64,000 bases of DNA, taken from sequence record PV700625; one strand, 5' to 3'. Under the pieces are notes generated by a model. The model was given only the letters and a program-made list of their open reading frames with translations, made no database searches and was not told where the DNA came from. This document shows positions 6,133-64,000 of this stretch, in pieces (the first letter of the stretch is position 1; each line of letters starts with the position of its first letter). The translations under genes and the position numbers were made by a program. The stretch comes from Escherichia phage MET-P1-301.

Positions 6133-6990
6133 TTAGTCTTCTGTATCGAAGTCTTCATCTTCTTCGTCATCTGGGTCTGGCAAATCTTCATCATCACCAT
6201 CATCAGAATCATTCGAAGATTTATGGTCTGTTGCGTCTTCTTCAGTGATTTCACCGTTATCTTCGACACCATCAAGACCAAGCATAGCCAGTTCGTCTTC
6301 ATCCAGTTCAGGTTCACCGTTAGCACCGTTACCACCAGTGTAAGGTACAAGAGTATCAATGATAAACTGTTCCTGAATAGGTTTTGTCAGAACATTGTTC
6401 TCAAAAGTGTAGAAGTGAGTAGAAAGAATCACACTACCAAAAGAACCATTACCAACTGCAATATCTGGATGAATTACATCATAGTTCTTATCATCTTCAT
6501 GTTTATCAGATGCTTGAGCTTTGATTTTCTTCATCGGCTGCTTAACAGCTACACGCTTACCATTTACTTCTTCAATAAGCATAACAGGGAATGACTGTTT
6601 AGCTGTCCACACAGCACCATCTTTATAAGCTGCTGCACGACTCACTTTCAAGATGTAGTAAGTGTCTGCTTCAAATGGTGGTTTGCAACCAAACTTCTCT
6701 TCGAAGTCGTCTGCATCAACTGCTTCAGTAGTAACTTTATCCCAACCTTCTGGGTTTTTCTTAGACTTAGTAAACTCTTTAAACAGTTTGTTACCGTCTT
6801 CTGCAAGAATTGATACACTGTAGTTACAGTCTTTTCCTGGGAATTTCTTATCAATAGACTTACCTTTTCCCGGACGTGGTGAAGTGTTCAGGTAATAAAA
6901 CCAGACATCTTTCAGCAGGTAACGCAGAGTTTGGCGTTCAGTACCATTGTACTTCTCTACCGGAGCTTTCATTTTAACAACTTTAGACAT
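6133..6990 (-). CDS. putative ssDNA-binding protein with acidic C-terminal tail
   Basis: 285 aa; C-terminal 45 residues almost entirely D/E ending ...DEDFDTED, as in phage SSBs; position in replication module. Confidence 0.45.
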   Translation of the reverse strand: MSKVVKMKAPVEKYNGTERQTLRYLLKDVWFYYLNTSPRPGKGKSIDKKFPGKDCNYSVSILAEDGNKLFKEFTKSKKNPEGWDKVTTEAVDADDFEEKFGCKPPFEADTYYILKVSRAAAYKDGAVWTAKQSFPVMLIEEVNGKRVAVKQPMKKIKAQASDKHEDDKNYDVIHPDIAVGNGSFGSVILSTHFYTFENNVLTKPIQEQFIIDTLVPYTGGNGANGEPELDEDELAMLGLDGVEDNGEITEEDATDHKSSNDSDDGDDEDLPDPDDEEDEDFDTED

Positions 6991-19548: not shown

Positions 19549-19761
19549 ATGGCTCTTAAAAAGTTACATCCCAGAAGCGGTTATGGTAAGATAATTGACG
19601 ATACAGACGGCTTTACAGTCTTTACAGTCATCTGTCAAGATGATTCACAGATTGAAAAGGCTCTTGATGATTATCTTAACGATGAACGTGAAAAGGTTAG
19701 GGCTACAAACATTGATTCATTGATTGACACTTCACGCAAACGGAAGAAGAAAGATGAATGA
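19549..19761 (+). CDS. hypothetical protein
   Basis: 70-aa ORF. Confidence 0.4.
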   Translation: MALKKLHPRSGYGKIIDDTDGFTVFTVICQDDSQIEKALDDYLNDEREKVRATNIDSLIDTSRKRKKKDE

Positions 19762-20053
19762 AGCTTTTGACCCTTATGCCCCACAAGATGATTGGGAGGC
19801 TGATAGAGAGGCTGAAATGGAGAGTTATATTTGTCCAATGGATGTAGACGAAATGAGAGATTTCGTTGCACATCGTTTTAAGAGAGAGATTAAATCCAGA
19901 GGTCTTTCTCAAGAGCAAGTTGCTAAAATTTGTGGTATCTCTCAAGCTCGTGTATCCAACATAATCCACCTCACTGGGAATGTTTCCCTTGAGTATATGT
20001 TGGAAGTATGTGAAAAATTTGGTGTTAATTTTAATTTAAGGTTGGCAGATTAA
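19751..20053 (+). CDS. helix-turn-helix (XRE-like) DNA-binding protein
   Basis: LSQEQVAKICGISQARVSNI resembles an HTH recognition helix region. Confidence 0.5.
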   Translation, partial: KMNEAFDPYAPQDDWEADREAEMESYICPMDVDEMRDFVAHRFKREIKSRGLSQEQVAKICGISQARVSNIIHLTGNVSLEYMLEVCEKFGVNFNLRLAD

Positions 20054-23053: not shown

Positions 23054-23326
23054 TTATTTCTCCCCCTTAAAAGCTTTTTCTAAGTTATCTACGAACTCAT
23101 CATCAATAGGTGTGTCTGTTTTACTCGCAAGGTATCTTGCAAGCTTAAAGAACACTTTCTCAATCATGTATTCACTCAGAAGGGATAAAATGAGTTTCCA
23201 GAAGAAGCTACCTAGATTTTTAGAAGAATTGCTAGGATTGTAGGCATTTAATCACCTCATCAGCCAAGATGGTGAGAATACCAATAAAGAATATTAACAC
23301 CATCTTAACAATCAGTCAACAAGGGA

Positions 23327-40894: not shown

Positions 40895-41446
40895 TTATTT
40901 GATAAGAGATTTTAGAGCATTCTGGAGAGCCAGTTTGCGTTGTTCAGCGGTGTCTTCGGAAGCATTCTTAGCTGGTTCTTTTTCTTCTTCAACCAAATCA
41001 GCTTCGCCGTCATTACCCACTTCTTCCATAGCGTTAGAATGTTCAAGAACAGCACCAGCAGTTTCTTTCAGCTTGGTAATTTCTGATTCTTTTTCTTCCA
41101 TTGCAGAAGCATGGGATGCGATAGTTTCATTAAGTTTCTGGTTAGCACCTTCCATAGCATTCATAAACAGAACACTTAGAGGGTTATCAAGACCAGCACC
41201 TAAAATAGTCGTTGCAGCTTCTTTTGCATCAAATCCAAAAGCTTCAGCAGAAGCAGAAATCTTATTAGTCAAATCTGACAAAGCAGCTTCCTGTTCTTTA
41301 GCTTTCATTTGAGCAACCTGAAGACGCAAAGCTTCTAGTTCTTGCTTTTCTTGTTCAGTCATTTCTTCACCTGAATTGTTAACGTTTAAACTTACAGGAG
41401 CCTCTTCAGAACCTTGTAAGTAATTTAAGAAATCATCTTGAGACAT
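40895..41446 (-). CDS. putative scaffolding protein
   Basis: 183 aa, acidic coiled-coil (EEKEPAKNASEDTAEQ...), between protease and decoration genes. Confidence 0.5.
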   Translation of the reverse strand: MSQDDFLNYLQGSEEAPVSLNVNNSGEEMTEQEKQELEALRLQVAQMKAKEQEAALSDLTNKISASAEAFGFDAKEAATTILGAGLDNPLSVLFMNAMEGANQKLNETIASHASAMEEKESEITKLKETAGAVLEHSNAMEEVGNDGEADLVEEEKEPAKNASEDTAEQRKLALQNALKSLIK

Positions 41447-41544
41447 GATTGAGTTAATTAAACCAAGTTCAAGAGCTTCCTGAGCAGAATAAACATTCGC
41501 CTCAGTATTCTTTACAGCTTCTTCAGAGATATTACGAGCTTCAG

Positions 41545-42240
41545 CTACAAAACCTGTAAAGGTTGCGTAGGTATCATTAATTCTCTTTGAAGTCTTTCTT
41601 TGCTTTCTTCTGAAAGTGCTTGGAATGGTGAACCCATACCTTTAAACTCACCAGCTTTGATGACGTTAATTGTTACGCCATTCTTTTCAAATGCCTTAGT
41701 TAATTCCTGATGAACCATGATTACACCAATAGAACCAACATCTGCATCTGGTGATGCAATAATTTCTTCAGCAGAAGATGCAAGAGCATATGCAGCGGAA
41801 CAAGCGAACTCATCTACATAAGCAATAATTTTCTTTTGGCCTCTTGAAGCCATGATGTGACGTGCTAATTCAAAGCAACCTGAAGCTTCACCACCACCAG
41901 AATCAATATGCAGAACAATAGTCTTAATTGACTCATCTGCTAAAGCTTCGTCAAAGCCTCTGCGTAAACCTTCATAAGAGCTTAAACCGCCTGTACACAT
42001 TGCATCAATGAATGTCATACGATGGGTTAAGCCACCCATAATAGGGATAATAGCAATGTCATCTTTTACTTTTAAAAGACTTCTTGCGTCACCTTTGGGT
42101 TTATCAAAGTTTACTGCTGCTTGGACATCACCCAGCAATCTGTTATTCACATAAGTTGCTGCTGAGTGAGCTAATGATTCAGTGGCTAGTAAAGGTTGGT
42201 TGAATAATCTATCAGCAAGTCTGAAGATATTCGAACTCAT
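41545..42240 (-). CDS. prohead protease (S49/ClpP-like)
   Basis: IAYVDEFACSAAYALASSAEEIIASPDADVGSIGV resembles SppA/ClpP-fold serine peptidases. Confidence 0.7.
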   Translation of the reverse strand: MSSNIFRLADRLFNQPLLATESLAHSAATYVNNRLLGDVQAAVNFDKPKGDARSLLKVKDDIAIIPIMGGLTHRMTFIDAMCTGGLSSYEGLRRGFDEALADESIKTIVLHIDSGGGEASGCFELARHIMASRGQKKIIAYVDEFACSAAYALASSAEEIIASPDADVGSIGVIMVHQELTKAFEKNGVTINVIKAGEFKGMGSPFQALSEESKERLQRELMIPTQPLQVL

Positions 42241-42251
42241 TTTTACTCACC

Positions 42252-42584
42252 CTATTTGTTTAAATCTACAGAGACTGAAGAGATAACATAGATACCTTCT
42301 TCAGCAAAGAATTGAGGTTTGCTAAGAGCACCAGTTGCCACGCATTTATCGTTAGCATCCCACAAGCTATAGTGTGAGACCGTTGCAGAAGCTGGAACAG
42401 TAATGTTAACTGTGTCTTCTGAGGCAATTAAGCCATTATCCGGTTCAGAAAAATAAATAGCCACTGGCTGAGTAACCTTATTTGCTGTAGGGTCTGCCGT
42501 TGGGTCTACATTGTGTAAAATAATAGTCGTTGGGGTTAGCGTGGCGAGGATTTTGTTCTTACCATCAATAGTTAATGTTCCCAT
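42252..42584 (-). CDS. hypothetical protein
   Basis: 110-aa ORF. Confidence 0.35.
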   Translation of the reverse strand: MGTLTIDGKNKILATLTPTTIILHNVDPTADPTANKVTQPVAIYFSEPDNGLIASEDTVNITVPASATVSHYSLWDANDKCVATGALSKPQFFAEEGIYVISSVSVDLNK

Positions 42585-42651
42585 TAATTAAACCTTACTT
42601 TTTGTTTAAGGACTGTTGAATGGTTACCAGATTCATCTACCACATTTACAA

Positions 42652-43083
42652 TCATATCATATACTTTACCTTTGACAAGTACTTTGTAATCATTTTGTGA
42701 AAAATGTATTCAAGTCTGTTTGTTTCTTTATTAACTGTCATTGGGGATTGAAATGCAGTGTCGAGGGTAATGAAAGCGGCTTCAATGCTATTAACATTGA
42801 TACGTTTATTCTCGCAGTTATATAACTTTACACCCAAAAGGCATGAACTGTCAAATGGAATTTTAACAATTTCACTACAATTTCCTGAAATAAACGGTTT
42901 TCCACTCATTGGAGCATCAAGTAACCTACAAATAGTGAAAACGTCAGAGGTTCCACCGTCACTTACGTAACCTGAAAGGCTGACCCTTGAGCCAGCCTCT
43001 ACAGATAATTTGTCAGTGATAATAAGAACACCTCTATACGAATGCACTCGTGTAGCATTTGAAATAGAGATAACTTCAGCCAT
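42652..43083 (-). CDS. hypothetical protein
   Basis: 143-aa ORF. Confidence 0.35.
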   Translation of the reverse strand: MAEVISISNATRVHSYRGVLIITDKLSVEAGSRVSLSGYVSDGGTSDVFTICRLLDAPMSGKPFISGNCSEIVKIPFDSSCLLGVKLYNCENKRINVNSIEAAFITLDTAFQSPMTVNKETNRLEYIFHKMITKYLSKVKYMI

Positions 43084-44557
43084 TATTTATTTGCCTTATT
43101 TGCTGTGCTTGGGTCTTTCGCTGAAGGTGTCTTTGCAGTACCTTCTCCAGCGGTCTTATAACCATCTCCTGAGCGGCTTTGGCTATTTGGAGAAAGCTTT
43201 TCAGATACTGGCTGAGACTCATCAGCAGGAGGAAGACCAATATGCTCTCTAAGCTTGTTAGATAGCTCTTTGTCAACTTCCAAAGCACCTACTGCAACAG
43301 TCTTCTGAATATAAGAACCAATTGCTTCAAGGTCTGGAGTTTCAATATCATCATATGTGATTTGTACATGTTCTTCATCATCCCACATATTAAGAGCATA
43401 AGTCTGTGCAACTAAATCACGGTTAATTACGTTCTTAATTTGCTTCAGCAGAATATCTACTGACATCGCTAGTAAGCTTGTCTTAGAATCTGCAAGAGAG
43501 AATGAACCGTATTTTGACTGACCCATAGCAAGAACATCTGACATAAATGCCATCATAATCTGCTTGGAATATCTGTCAATAATAGAACCTGTATCGTATG
43601 CTTTAGCACCCTGTCTAGAAACTAATGAGAACTCAAAAATATCCTCTTTAGTATCTGGGTCGATATATCTAGGCCAGATTAAACCTGCTCTGTCATTAGC
43701 AATCATATCATTAACAACAGTTTTGCAGTATTGTACGAAAGCTTTCTTTTCAGGTTCTGCATTTTCATCCAGATAATCTGGTGGTAAACCAATCTTTGGC
43801 ATACCTACCAAGTCTCTTGAAACACCAACAGCTTCGTACTCTTCAATCTGAACTTTATACTTCCACGGTACATAGGCATTAAGTAATGGTGAACGACCTT
43901 CTGGGTTCCCATATTCGTCATCATACTTAAACAGCATGAATTTAGCTCGTGGGAGTTTTCTTGTTAGTGGTCTTTCTCCAAGATTAATTGCTCCAGCAAT
44001 ATGTGAAACATTTCTCAGATTCTGTCTAACACCAGTAACTTTTCTAAAGTCTTCGTCAAAATACCACTTATCAAGTGTTGATTGGTTTCTGATTGGTAAT
44101 TTAGCCCATCCAATTAAACCGTCATCAAATTTAGACTGGTACTTTCCTTTTTACCCTGACGCTTCTTATAAACTTTCTCGTTAACACAGAACCCATAAGT
44201 GCAGAATGACATTACAGAATTAATAAAATCTGCCCAATCATGCTCCATGTCATCCATTAAAGAATTAAAGAAGTCTGCTCTTTCAAGCATTTTAGGGTCT
44301 TGCTCTTTTCCCTTTGGAGGTACAAATCTCCAGTTGACTTTTCTGACAAACATCTTAATAATATTTACAGATGCTGCTACAGCAGGGTCACGCATCATTA
44401 ATTGGAAAGTTTTAATACTTTCAGGGAACCTTAGTGCCTGACGAGGTTCTTCATAGATTCTTCCACTCTTAACCTTCAGACCCAAAGAACCTACTTCACC
44501 CATTCTAAATGGTGGTAAGCTTTCTTGTGTTTCTGTAATATCTGCCATTCTTCTCAC
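43083..44557 (-). CDS. portal protein (split by frameshift)
   Basis: ORFs 44114-44557 and 43083-43937 are collinear, separated by a short shifted stretch; downstream of terminase. Confidence 0.65.
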
Positions 44558-44564
44558 CTAGCTA

Positions 44565-46180
44565 TCAACGTCTAAGCCCCTCATATGGGTTTCCTCTCAC
44601 TAAATCTGTGTGAGCACCCATTGACGGTGGCTTGAATAATTTAACTTCGTTAAGACTGTTGAAAGCATCACTGGTAGCATCCACTTGGTCATCTTTAGTT
44701 TTACCATCACCACAAAAGCCTTCAAGTTCTTGAAAGTAAGCTTCATTCCAACTACCTCTCAAGACTTTTACAAGTCCAGCTTCAGAAGCAGCAGAGAATC
44801 CCGCAAAGCGGGTAACTTTATCTTTATTTGTTGGTTTAGCTCTTGCTCGATAACCTTTCTCGGCAAGTTTCCTGATGAGGGATGTTGCGTAGGATTTACC
44901 AGCAGCGCCTGGGTCTTGAGGGATAAAAATACCAGTTCGCTTACCGTCACTTTCAGCAGTCAAATTAATTTGTGTTTCGACTCCAGAGGGTCTATCTCTA
45001 AATCTTACTACATCAATGATATAATAGCAACCGTCTTTTTAGATTTACCCATCTTAACACCTGCTGTCCAGTCTGGATTAGGGTTAATCTCCGATGGTAA
45101 AGTTGCTGCTAAGTCCCATGCTCTAACATCAAATACATCTTCTGGGAGTGAATCAACAATTTCACACCATTGTCTTTGCCAATAGTTTGAACCTTCTGCA
45201 CGAGCCTTCCAGTTACCGAAACGAAGTCTTGCAACGTTTACAGGGGTGTTGTTTTCCAACTTACCACGGTACTTAGGCTCTAAGAAGTCAAGGATTGGGT
45301 TATCATCAATCGTACCAGAGATAAAGGTGTATGTTTGAGGAATCTCAAGAGGGAACATTTCAAGAATCTTGTCTCTCTCCCAATCAGAAACCATCACACC
45401 ATCATTCATTACATACCAACGGATACGACCACACTTTTCAGGGTCTGGGTAGCCTTCTTCATCTAAGAATGGCTCTACCCAATCGTAAATAAAGTGGTCT
45501 CTGTCTGGGTTCATGGAAATCTTCATGTATGAATCACCTTCAGCCCCAGAACGTAGACGAGTCTGTAGGTATGAAATCTGTGAAGCAGAGAAGTGTGTAC
45601 CTTCGTCAAAGTAAATAGCTGAGTATTCAATACCCTGATGACCTTCAGCGTGCTTTTCAAGTTCTAGGTAGGTAAACTTGATAGTTGCCCCAGAAGGGAA
45701 TGTGATAGTCATTTTCTGCTCGTGAGGAATACCACCAAACTTACCAAATAGTTTCTTTGCAGCAGGCCATAAACCACCTTGTAGCTGTGTTGTATTTCGA
45801 CGGAAATATACAGCATTATAGTTAGGGTCTTCAATAAATCTTAAAGAGTCCATTAACAATGCAGCAGTTTTACCAGCACCAGCAGCACCACCATAGAGAA
45901 CCAAGTCAGCATTAGTATTTAAAAAGACCTCTTGAGAACCCGGCTGAGGGGCTACATAATTCTTATCAGTCATCAATTTAAAGATAAGGCGAACTTGGTC
46001 TGGTGTGTATCTTAATAAAGTCAGAATTTGAGTTGGAAGGAATTTAGAGGGGTCTTTACCGAATGATTTAATAATTTCTTTTACTTCATCAGAAAGCCCC
46101 AACTCTCCAGCTAGGACTTTCCTAACATCTTCCACTCGCTTCTGCTTAACAGCATTTAAGTCCATTAAGCGCCTCCGCAA
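44565..46180 (-). CDS. terminase large subunit (split by frameshift)
   Basis: N-terminal ORF has Walker A LYGGAAGAGKTAAL; C-terminal ORF 44565-44963 has nuclease-type GKTKDDQVDA. Confidence 0.8.
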
Positions 46181-61322: not shown

Positions 61323-61376
61323 TAACTTGAGGGGTTACTTGATAGCCCCTTTGTAGAAACTTAGAAGGTAGCGAAT

Positions 61377-61821: not shown

Positions 61822-62256
61822 ATGCTTGACAACTCAACTAAAGATGAAATGTACAAAGAGATTTGTGATAAGTTGAATTGTTCAAGACATGCTGCTAAGG
61901 TTCTTGTCTCGTGTTTTATCTGGGAATGCTCAGAAGCTTATATGCAATATGTAGCGTTTGAAAGTTCTCACTTACTAGGTGATGTAGAAGCTGGTGAGAA
62001 GCTAAAAGAACCTGAAGTGAAAACAGTCCCTAAAGTTGGTAATACATACCCTCTTAAAGACTTCAAGACTGGAAAGATTATTGCAAAAGGTGTAGTAGAG
62101 TCTGTCTACCATGATGGTAAATACTTACTTAAAATATTTGAGTATGACAGCCACCACACACACTTATGTGGGATTACATTCTTAGTAACAGAAGAAGACC
62201 TCATTAAGAACAACGGCAACAAGTTTGCAGTACCAGCTTACCAAGTTTTACGATAA
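61822..62256 (+). CDS. hypothetical protein
   Basis: 144-aa ORF. Confidence 0.45.
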   Translation: MLDNSTKDEMYKEICDKLNCSRHAAKVLVSCFIWECSEAYMQYVAFESSHLLGDVEAGEKLKEPEVKTVPKVGNTYPLKDFKTGKIIAKGVVESVYHDGKYLLKIFEYDSHHTHLCGITFLVTEEDLIKNNGNKFAVPAYQVLR

Positions 62257-62269
62257 TGGTGTGATAGAT

Positions 62270-62818
62270 ATGGAAAAAGATAACTTAAAAGAAGTTGAAG
62301 GTAACTACCTAGTCCTTGATTGGAATGATATTCGAGAAGCACTCTCCGAAGAAAATCTTGACTGGTTCCAACAAATTATCTTTGCAGTACGACATACCAG
62401 AGAAGTTGAAAATGGTAAAGAGCCACTTGAAGGAATCTTTGTAGATAGGTCTTATCCATTCTATGAAGACACTTTGCAGAAAGTTAAGATGTACTTTAGA
62501 CAGAAGAACCGTAAAGTGGTCACTATGGTATCTCTTGGTGGACAGAATATGTCTGTGATGGAAGATATTAATCCTAAGAGACCGAGTAAAGGTATCTGTA
62601 TAAAAATCACAGGACATGAAGAGTATATCTCAGTGGATGACTTTAGTGCATTCTGTAATGGCTCTTGTGTCTTTAATGGTTTCCACTATGATATCCGAGT
62701 GTACCCAATCAAGGGAGATGATATCATGATGCAGGTATTTGATAACAACAACGGCTTTACTCATTTTTATCAGACAACCAAGTCATCACTAAAAACAGTT
62801 CTGGAAACACTGATTTAA
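62270..62818 (+). CDS. hypothetical protein
   Basis: Internal ATG 62270 chosen to avoid overlap with upstream gene. Confidence 0.45.
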   Translation: MEKDNLKEVEGNYLVLDWNDIREALSEENLDWFQQIIFAVRHTREVENGKEPLEGIFVDRSYPFYEDTLQKVKMYFRQKNRKVVTMVSLGGQNMSVMEDINPKRPSKGICIKITGHEEYISVDDFSAFCNGSCVFNGFHYDIRVYPIKGDDIMMQVFDNNNGFTHFYQTTKSSLKTVLETLI

Positions 62819-62830
62819 AAATATCTTAAG

Positions 62831-62860
62831 AGCCTCCTTAATTGGGGGCTTTTTAATTTT
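62831..62860 (+). terminator. intrinsic terminator
   Basis: AGCCTCC-TTAATT-GGGGGCT hairpin followed by TTTTTAATTTT. Confidence 0.6.
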
Positions 62861-62879
62861 ATAAAATTTTATCAGTTGT

Positions 62880-64000
62880 CCCAACCTCTGGGTCACCATC
62901 ATATGTGAACAAAATATCTATCCTTCTTAACAACCTTCTTAATCTTACTCTCTATATAGTTATATAGTACTATATAGTATCTTAGTAACTATCTAGTGGT
63001 CTTAATAACCCCTCTGTATAAACCTTCTAAATAGTCCTCTAACAAGCCCTCTAACAAGCCCTCTAACAAGCCTTCTAACAAGCATTCTTAACAACCTACA
63101 CAATCACCTTAACCATCCCTCTACACCTTCTTAGAAGCTCCTATACACCTCTTAATCTCTATGTCAGCTATGTGACTCTCTATAGGTGTTCACTAGGTAT
63201 TACTAAGCCTCTATATAGACTGTTTTAACAAACTTAACAGGAATATCTTTACAGACCTTATCTCACAAGGTCTAACACAGTACTAACAAGGTATCTTATA
63301 AGCCTGTTTCTACCTGTATTTTTAAAAGACTGTATAGGTAATTATTCAGAATCTTAAAATTTTTATAAAATAGGACTATCAAGTCATTTTTAGGGTCTTT
63401 GAAGGAACTCAAAAATATCTGTAGAAGATGTATATCTGCTTGGTAGCCCTTAACAGTTCCCTTACCATCCCTTTGCAAAATTTTAAAATATCCTTAACAA
63501 TCTCTTAACAGTTCTCACATCTTCTTAACAACTCTTCAAAGGTCTTAACAGTTTCTTAACAGAACTGACAAGGATGTAACAGTTTTCTAACAAGATTTGA
63601 TAGGGCTTTACAGAATCTTAACAGATGACTAACAAGAGCTAACAAGTTAATTTTAAAGAGTTATTTTGTTAAGATAATTAACAAGTTCTAACAAGTGTTT
63701 AATCTTTTTAACAAACTATTAACATGGTCACTATCTCTTTCTTATCGTTCCCTTTCTCTCTTAGTGATTCCTTAAACATACCTCTTAAAAGCTCTCTATA
63801 GCCCCTTATAAGCTCTTTTAAGCCTCTTCCTAGTAGTTACACCCCAACTATACAGACACCTCTTTATAGAGCTTTACAGGAGCTTTTAAGGCTATGTCAA
63901 AGGTTCTTACAAGGCTTTTACGTGGTCTTAACAGAGATTTAACAAGGGGCTAACAAGTCTCTAACAAGCATAACTATGTAGGGTTTGTTAAGAAATTGAA
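62880..64000. repeat. dense array of degenerate YTAACAR repeats in a non-coding, pyrimidine-skewed region
   Basis: About 30 copies of CTAACAAG / CTTAACAG variants, including three tandem CCCTCTAACAAG units near 63040-63080; top strand very G-poor; no ORF over 60 aa except one weak minus ORF. Confidence 0.8.

Follow-up and report, generated by a model that had tools for sequence, protein, structure and literature searches.

The final part of the window analyzed here, a stretch of 64,000 nucleotides from Escherichia phage MET-P1-301 (sequence record PV700625), is a block of DNA without any credible gene (62819–64000), which very probably represents the right-hand terminus of the genome of a Felix O1-like phage (Ounavirinae), formed by a direct terminal repeat (DTR) and a subterminal spacer. 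By homology, the DTR can be placed with high confidence at 63442 to approximately 64021, a length of about 580 bp, and the spacer of some 620 bp, which lies just inside the right end of the genome, at 62819–63441. The block is packed with short repeats in phase with the DNA helix, conserved units that are likely to be protein-binding sites, and would support a coat on one side of the molecule. On balance, the whole is probably a genome-end or concatemer-junction module coated by a protein along these phased sites, and the only candidate for this protein with evidence in its favor is ArcA-P, a response regulator of Escherichia coli.

The evidence for the genome end comes from the relatives of this phage. 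The block matches approximately 290 independent phage records at 60–93% identity, all of them Felix O1-like myoviruses, belonging to the genera Felixounavirus, Mooglevirus, and Suspvirus, or to the Erwinia Kolesnikviruses, which match over a short stretch. In the relatives assembled through this region, the gene-free block, which continues past the end of the window, reaches some 1.4–1.7 kb in total, and is found between two converging gene clusters, each ended by a terminator. Several relatives' records start or stop inside the block. In ECP2307, a repeat of 592 bp is 100% identical at both ends of the record and maps to window positions 63442–63998, and the Erwinia phage vEam_S_24 has a 444-bp repeat at its two ends, with 99.5% identity.

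Terminal repeats have also been reported for several members of the group. A short direct terminal repeat of 581 bp, determined with PhageTerm, is annotated at the homologous place in Pr103Blw, and the same program gave a 613-bp terminal repeat in Ro111lw; short direct terminal repeats have also been given for the Erwinia Kolesnikviruses. In UAB_Phi87, a DTR of 608 bp was mapped by Bal31 digestion and run-off sequencing. The boundary motifs lie 614 bp apart in the UAB_Phi87 record, at most 6 bp off the length obtained in the laboratory, and the supplement of that study does not give the boundary sequences. In replicating concatemers, the block is the junction of two genomes, flanked by converging gene clusters. 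What weighs against this placement of the genome end is that the window contains a single copy of the repeat, with no matching left end, and that the termini are placed by homology only.

An earlier note on this DNA, made from the sequence alone, had included a genome-terminal region and, by implication, a packaging site among its suggestions, and this suggestion is supported, the second half of the block corresponding to the DTR and the first half to the subterminal spacer of the mapped relatives. Its suggestion of an array of sites for a DNA-binding protein is plausible, with a host protein, ArcA, as the candidate. The doubt raised at the same time, that the repeats might be an artifact of assembly or lack conservation, is dispelled by the related phages, given that the block is kept in the independent records and is non-coding in the relatives.

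The left boundary of the DTR, CTGCTT/GGTAGCC (63436–63448, the slash marking the cut), is homologous to that of the mapped relatives, and the right boundary lies approximately 21 bp past the end of the window. Three records from two genera agree exactly at both boundaries (left, ...TATATCTGCTT/GGTAGCCCTTAACA; right, ...TGTTAAGAAAATGTTAAGGGGGC/). These sequences recur in Suspvirus, and are recognizable in the Erwinia phage with the 444-bp repeat. Read inward, the left boundary has the structure tt/GGTAGCCC-TTAACA-N5-TTAACA, and the right boundary, read inward on the complementary strand, ta/GCCCCC-TTAACA-N5-TTAACA-N5-TTAACA, with the element TAGCCC(CC)TTAACA being common to both, in inverted orientation. 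This symmetry would suit a single nuclease nicking opposite strands at the two boundaries. In the model for phage T7, opposite-strand nicks allow the single junction copy of the terminal repeat to be duplicated. Measured from the common element, there is a 4-nt difference between the cuts reported at the two ends, which is why opposite-strand nicking can only be inferred here.

Two records call for comment in relation to these termini. The last letters of the window (63995–64000) read ...AAATTGAA, and all the relatives read ...AAATTGTTAAG at this place. The conserved right terminus would follow approximately 21 bp further on, and the end of the source record may lie near the physical end of the genome, with poor terminal base calls. 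The 147-kb record GU169904.1, deposited as ‘Staphylococcus phage SA1’, contains a Felix O1-like terminal repeat at 91% identity (135905–136463), which suggests a chimeric or contaminated deposit.

The repeats themselves are as dense, and as biased in strand, as the earlier note had described. The motif YTAACAR has 28 matches in 62880–64000, 26 on the plus strand and two on the minus strand, and approximately 75 on both strands of the remaining 63 kb or so, which predicts some 1.3 for a stretch of equal size. The core TAACA is found 29 times on the plus strand of the block and twice on the minus strand, a 16-fold enrichment, and the sequence CTAACAAG 11 times, against four in the rest of the window (both strands). 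YTAACAR belongs to a wider family of 8-mers with the frame CT-N4-AG, which has 48 copies in the block (40.6/kb, against 9.7/kb elsewhere in the window). When the length of the spacer in this frame is varied, only CT-N6-AG is raised (3.2-fold), and the remainder range from 0.4- to 1.5-fold.

The spacing of the copies, which had been taken to be irregular, is in fact quantized and helically phased. The commonest step between successive TAACA copies is 11 bp (9 of 28), followed by 20 bp (four), 12 bp (three), and 10 bp (two), and the copies are separated by 11, 20–22, or 31–33 bp, with a long-range period of approximately 10.3 bp. The autocorrelation of the bases peaks at lags of 10–12 (z = 6.7, 7.6, and 4.4, respectively, relative to the rest of the window), 20–22, and 31–32. 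The best period in the Rayleigh analysis is 10.25–10.35 bp, with R = 0.72–0.79, which was reached by none of 2000 random placements. The periodicity score is maximal exactly over the DTR in three genera, declining into both flanks. With a period of approximately 10.3 bp, the repeat copies come to lie on one face of the helix.

The constraint on these copies differs between the two parts of the block. In an alignment of 18 sequences, the TAACA bases of the DTR are 97.8% conserved, in comparison with 85.8% for the other bases of the DTR, whereas the TAACA bases of the spacer are less conserved (70%) than their surroundings (86.5%), which implies that copies turn over in the spacer. The relatives have 19–23 copies per DTR and 3–10 per spacer. 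Felixounavirus, Suspvirus, and Mooglevirus have their copies at exactly the same distances from the left boundary (9, (20), 53, 64, 84, 104, 115, 124, 135, 146, and onward), and the step pattern recurs in Kolesnikvirus. The indels in the alignment have lengths of 9, 11, 21, 22, and 24 nt. Identity between genera is 78–79% in the DTR and 70–73% in the spacer, and 62–72% in the adjacent protein-coding genes. On the evidence of these alignments, the non-coding array is evidently under purifying selection.

On the bottom strand, the repeat unit reads TGTTA at an 11-bp spacing, as in the published direct-repeat site of ArcA-P. This regulator binds 10-bp direct repeats with a TGTTA core, spaced 11 bp, or sometimes 22 bp, from center to center. 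Its chromosomal sites have 2–5 repeats each, which are bound cooperatively, with the bending of the DNA, and extra or consensus repeats result in a higher affinity and a looser dependence on oxygen. The F-like plasmids exploit ArcA-P by means of TGTTAAGTAAATGTTAA, the ArcA-P footprint of plasmid R1.

The resemblance was scored with a weight matrix for an 18-bp box, built from 115 of the 128 published ArcA boxes derived from chromatin immunoprecipitation, with a cut-off of 9 bits, close to the score of the weakest real ArcA site. At this cut-off, the 1.18-kb block has 16 matches (13.5/kb), in comparison with 76 (1.2/kb) in the other 62.8 kb of the window, and at 15 bits or more, five matches fall in the block and four elsewhere, the best scores being 20.4, 17.9, and 15.9 bits. 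None of 300 column-shuffled matrices reached 16 matches, and the spacing of 11 bp gives the most matches. There are 16–19 matches per DTR in each of four genera, and the DTR is the sole hotspot of ArcA boxes in a complete relative of 87.6 kb. In the relatives, including fjerdesal, the triple repeat at the right terminus scores 22.5 and 22.7 bits, which is above every training site, and resembles the ArcA-P footprint of plasmid R1.

The array shares with the ArcA-P sites of icdA, astC, and acs in E. coli, and of the PY promoter in the F-like plasmids, a TGTTA(A) core, spacings of 11 and 22 bp, and a head-to-tail arrangement. Its degenerate copies (TGTAA, TGTGA, and TGTCA) are variants tolerated by real ArcA sites, and the scores found here and in the relatives, 9–22.7 bits, span and exceed the range of those sites. 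The ends of T7, by contrast, score at background with the same matrix. The chromosomal sites differ from the array in that their 2–5 repeats overlap a promoter, whereas there are 19–23 in each terminal repeat here, with no gene to regulate. A search of the whole genome of a relative by tblastn, with an ArcA sequence as the query, recovered no homologue of ArcA. The only tight ArcA-box-like cluster of the window outside the DTR is found at 23294–23322 (minus strand), with three repeats at 11 bp and scores of 16.7 and 15.1 bits, and its counterpart in the relative H12 lies directly after the stop codon of the tail fiber gene.

Based on these data, a mechanism can be proposed in which a protein bound to sites approximately one helical turn apart would form a coat along a single face of the DNA, covering most of the DTR, with the arrays directed outward at both cut sites. 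A nuclease might nick opposite strands at the two boundaries, leading to the duplication of the terminal repeat, as in the T7 model, with the protein coat acting as an architectural scaffold for the formation of the ends, their packaging, or their protection. By analogy with T7 and lambda, one of these three roles at the concatemer junction would be the most likely function of the module. That the binder is the ArcA-P of the host is a tentative proposal, to which somewhat less than even weight can be given. In its fullest form, which is more speculative, the terminal repeats of the Felix O1-like phages may have evolved as landing pads for ArcA-P, with some 20 outward TGTTA repeats at each end nucleating an ArcA filament. 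This filament would be an architectural factor supplied by the host, which might replace the DNA recognition of the missing small terminase, shield the ends, or make their formation sensitive to the oxygen status of the host.

A number of points weigh against the identification of ArcA-P. The flanks of the core have preferences that are atypical for ArcA, given that a G follows TGTTA (position 7) in 12 of the 29 copies, but in only three of the 115 real sites, and that a C occupies position 1 in 8 of the 29, in comparison with three of the 115, while the other flanking positions of the repeat element are compatible with ArcA boxes. Neither the CT-N4-AG frame nor a TAACA-free block inside the DTR (block B, 63731–63905) is ArcA-like, which means that at least one other factor or constraint must be involved. 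These phages are grown routinely under aerobic conditions, when ArcA-P is low, and ArcA cannot therefore be strictly essential. No paper linking the Felix O1-like phages to ArcA was found in the literature search. Arrays of TGTTA at 11 bp recur in unrelated viral contigs, in which a binder encoded by the element is just as likely, and the analogous CCTAAAG repeats of T7 are not ArcA-like. In three IMG/VR contigs, four or five TGTGTTAAT repeats at 11 bp face an inverted set (L110, 12655–12890; L039, 6710–6950; L115, 9730–9990). Outside the Ounavirinae, the triple TTAACA-N5 pattern was found, among the matches listed from viral contigs, only in unrelated simple tandem repeats or in the arrays of other elements.

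Some of the same observations are accommodated by a binder encoded by the phage itself, that is, a packaging protein working as a functional small terminase on the same genome-end module, with the likeness to ArcA being coincidental. This is a serious possibility, albeit one that falls short of even odds. Phages with DTRs typically have repeat arrays in terminal and subterminal positions, which are specific to each phage, as in T7, and no small terminase is known in the Felix O1-like group, so that an undiscovered DNA-recognition protein must exist. The CT...AG frame, the G and C preferences of the flanks, the repeat family of block B, and the similar TGTTA arrays of unrelated elements all fit this alternative. 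It is less easily reconciled with site scores above those of the best chromosomal ArcA boxes, or with the probability, which can be crudely estimated at approximately 3%, that core and spacing would match one of the host's 14 or so OmpR-family regulators by chance. In addition, the small genes beside the large terminase provide no match to any DNA-binding family or solved structure, with the 66-, 145-, and 185-aa neighbors matching only families of unknown function in searches of PHROG, Pfam, and solved structures. The helix-turn-helix protein at 19751–20053, proposed earlier as a binder, was rejected, given that it is a regulator of the general XRE type and shows no link to the motif.

The concatemer junction of T7, with its SRR and SRL arrays, is a close parallel to be weighed here. 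In both cases, a short and exact direct terminal repeat is accompanied by a motif of 7–8 bp on one strand, found inside the repeat and in both flanks, in a non-coding block of which the top strand is C-rich and G-poor. T7 has 13 copies of CCTAAAG, all of them on a single strand, and this motif is unrelated in sequence, the comparison being one of analogy only. The period in T7 is 13 bp, rather than approximately 10.4–11 bp, and the terminal repeat is 160 bp, rather than some 580 bp. T7 lacks both the inverted copies at the right boundary and the symmetry of the boundaries, and has promoters reading inward from its ends, whereas the flanking clusters read outward to the ends here. To our knowledge, the function of the CCTAAAG repeats has never been established.

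The cos site of phage lambda (cosN and cosB, with the R sites of the terminase and a site for IHF) shares the concept of a site for packaging or the formation of ends, at which an array of protein sites, together with a host architectural protein, positions the terminase nuclease at symmetric nicks. Lambda has 12-nt cohesive ends and three R sites, in contrast with the terminal repeats and approximately 20 sites found here. The present block lacks an IHF consensus, and the Felix O1-like phages have no known small terminase.

If ArcA-P is bound, it might instead be as a decoy or regulatory device, in which hundreds of replicated DTR copies would titrate the regulator and de-repress the host genes of respiration and the TCA cycle, or ArcA-P would couple phage development to the redox state of the host. 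The density of boxes is extreme, at 16–19 per 0.5 kb or so, with two copies of the repeat in each genome. Sites with multiple, consensus-like repeats are known to bind even at the low levels of ArcA-P found in aerobic cells, and the phage has both aerobic and anaerobic ribonucleotide reductases, which suggest life in hosts of the low-oxygen gut. This alternative is nevertheless unlikely, given that it leaves unexplained the exact coincidence of the array with the DTR, its outward direction at both cuts, and the fixed positions of the copies across genera.

Less probable still is either of two possibilities put forward earlier, an origin of replication of the iteron type or a centromere for partition, located by chance at the concatemer junction. 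The phased direct repeats adjoin an AT-rich stretch (63320–63380), and 11-bp direct repeats are also used by centromeres of the ParR/parC type. ArcA-P has been reported to bind oriC. In parC of plasmid R1 and the iteron origins, there are likewise arrays of direct repeats of approximately 11 bp, bound in a cooperative manner along one side of the helix. Unlike these systems, however, there is no initiator, rep, or par gene nearby, the block being flanked on both sides by the 3′ ends of small hypothetical genes in clusters that converge on it, the phage is lytic, and the periodic signal coincides with the boundaries of the DTR. The units number 20–50, with a core of 5–8 bp at approximately 11 bp, rather than the 3–8 iterons of 17–22 bp of an origin. 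The DnaA boxes of the block are at chance level.

It is hardly credible that the repeats arose through replication slippage in terminal DNA that the phage can dispense with, and have no function, in spite of the poorly conserved and variable subterminal copies and the indels in unit-sized steps, considering the near-invariance of the motif bases in the DTR, their fixed positions in four genera, and a block that is more conserved than the neighboring genes.

Other readings of the block were rejected. A structured RNA was discarded, with no Rfam match inside the repeats; the only hit was a weak match of the Phe leader to the terminator that precedes them. A cluster of sigma-70 promoters received no support from the six promoter-like sites found, in comparison with 4.4 expected; the absence of a sigma-70 match noted earlier is correct in that full promoters are not enriched, but overlooks the fact that TTAACA matches the −35 hexamer at five of six positions. 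A hairpin or cruciform at the boundaries was rejected because the single-stranded DNA folds no better than shuffled sequences (z = −1.1 and +1.5), and an unusually unstructured strand, which might aid the annealing of the repeats, because the folding energy is as expected for the GC content (z = 0.14). In the PhageMaP essentiality study of Bas63, nothing is reported for this block, and the literature search found no paper with these 8-mers in a relevant context.

The gene-free block begins after the last gene of the rightward cluster (62225–62818, plus strand), a 197-aa open reading frame (ORF) of PHROG 4330, of unknown function, with homologues annotated in the relatives. The cluster is closed by a hairpin resembling an intrinsic terminator (62828–62853, plus strand), with a 10-bp stem followed by a run of Ts, and a terminator is annotated at the equivalent place in wV8 and Maleficent. 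The array had been delimited from 62880, which is indeed non-coding, although the block as a whole starts at 62819. No ORF exceeds 60 aa, which upholds the view that none explains the block; the 60-aa ORF with a TTG start at 63296–63478 (minus strand) straddles the genome-end boundary, and is broken by indels of 1–2 nt in the relatives. Pipelines have called small ‘hypothetical proteins’ within the block in many relatives (e.g., PP952733.1, 219–326 and 554–715; JN225449.1, 14525–15312), and it can be argued that these calls are spurious, because indels of 1–2 and 11 nt separate close relatives in this region. The top strand, which had been described as almost devoid of G, is G-poor without being so extreme, with 12.4% G in the block, falling to 6% at 63021–63140, in comparison with 19.2% in the remainder of the window. 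The GC skew across the block ranges from −0.16 to −0.51.

The spacer (62819–63441) contains 10 copies of TAACA on the plus strand, which turn over among the relatives, and 21 CT-N4-AG units. It includes tandem repeats of the CTATATAG type (62952–63009, plus strand), with periods of 10, 18, and 19, and a 12-bp tandem repeat of CCTCTAACAAGC (63036–63083, plus strand), which is present in 4.0 copies with 97% matching. The latter corresponds to the tandem noticed earlier, which is present, but as four copies of a 12-bp unit rather than a triple, and in fjerdesal and nataliec a repeat_region is annotated at the corresponding position. The spacer ends in a conserved block just outside the DTR (63397–63441, plus strand), which terminates in ...GATGTATATCTGCTT, with no variation among four genera in its final 12 bases.

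The portion of the DTR inside the window (63442–64000) has the left boundary CTT/GGTAGCCCTTAACA. Array A (63451–63724) has 15 TGTTA cores on the minus strand, read as TAACA on the plus strand, in steps of 10, 11, 20, and 31 bp, all directed at the left boundary of the DTR. Its period is 10.25 bp (R = 0.79), equaled by none of 2000 random sets, and it includes ArcA-box matches of 20.4, 15.9, 15.3, 15.2, and 14.8 bits. Within it lies a near-invariant block, CCTTTGCAAAATTTTAAAATATCC (63470–63493, plus strand), which belongs to neither family of repeats and is found in four genera, including the Erwinia phages, in which it forms the core of the only stretch that can still be detected by blastn. 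Block B, which lacks TAACA, contains the second repeat family, with palindromic frames and units (CTTAAAAG, CTCTATAG, CTTATAAG, CTTTTAAG, and CTTTATAG) at steps of 10–11 bp. Array C (63929–63966) has four TGTTA cores on the minus strand, at an exact spacing of 11 bp, with ArcA-box matches of 17.9, 11.8, and 10.6 bits. The first copy of an inverted triple, TGTTAAG-N4-TGTTAAG-N4-TGTTAAGGGGGC/, is found at 63986–64000 (plus strand), with the second and third copies lying beyond the end of the window; the triple abuts the right terminus in the relatives.

Related repeats are found at some distance from the block. In the intergenic gap at 61323–61376, a terminator-like hairpin is overlapped by three CT-N4-AG units (CTTGATAG, CTTTGTAG, and CTTAGAAG) at 11-bp spacing, which may make up a small outlier of the terminal motif family. 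In the left-end cluster of the relatives, which is outside the window, other intergenic repeats, strongly periodic, are found among leftward genes (6501–6700 and 7601–7800 of L001). These are probably the counterparts of the direct repeats of 57 and 39 bp that have been reported for Felix O1, and of DR_2 to DR_6 in wV8. Elsewhere in the window, in the region 40895–46180 (minus strand), three genes that are single in the relatives are each split into two ORFs: the large terminase (45008–46180 and 44565–44963), the portal protein (44114–44557 and 43083–43937), and the head protease (41545–42240 and 40895–41446). This points to frameshifts, and hence to a draft-quality sequence or pseudogenes.

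The DTR of this genus is already published, and parts of the array are annotated in a few records, only as a bare repeat_region. Neither the helical phasing, nor the symmetry of the boundaries, nor the identity with ArcA sites was found to be described in the literature search, and the phased, ArcA-like array appears to have gone undescribed so far.

The Felix O1-like phages are used widely in the typing of Salmonella, in biocontrol, and in therapy cocktails, and have no known small terminase or packaging signal. The present analysis ties their cut sites to conserved, symmetric sequences, and indicates that, rather than being filler, the terminal repeat forms a conserved array of predicted binding sites in phase with the helix. 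Should ArcA-P prove to bind these sites, the biology of the genome ends would be tied to the oxygen and redox sensor of the host, and phage yield could depend on aerobic or anaerobic conditions, which would be relevant for applications in the gut. This would also be the first two-component response regulator recruited to the termini of a phage genome, and a new use by phages of a host protein at DNA ends. The ArcA-like array of the Felix O1-like phages also provides a concrete hypothesis for the role of the repeat arrays at genome ends of the T7 type.

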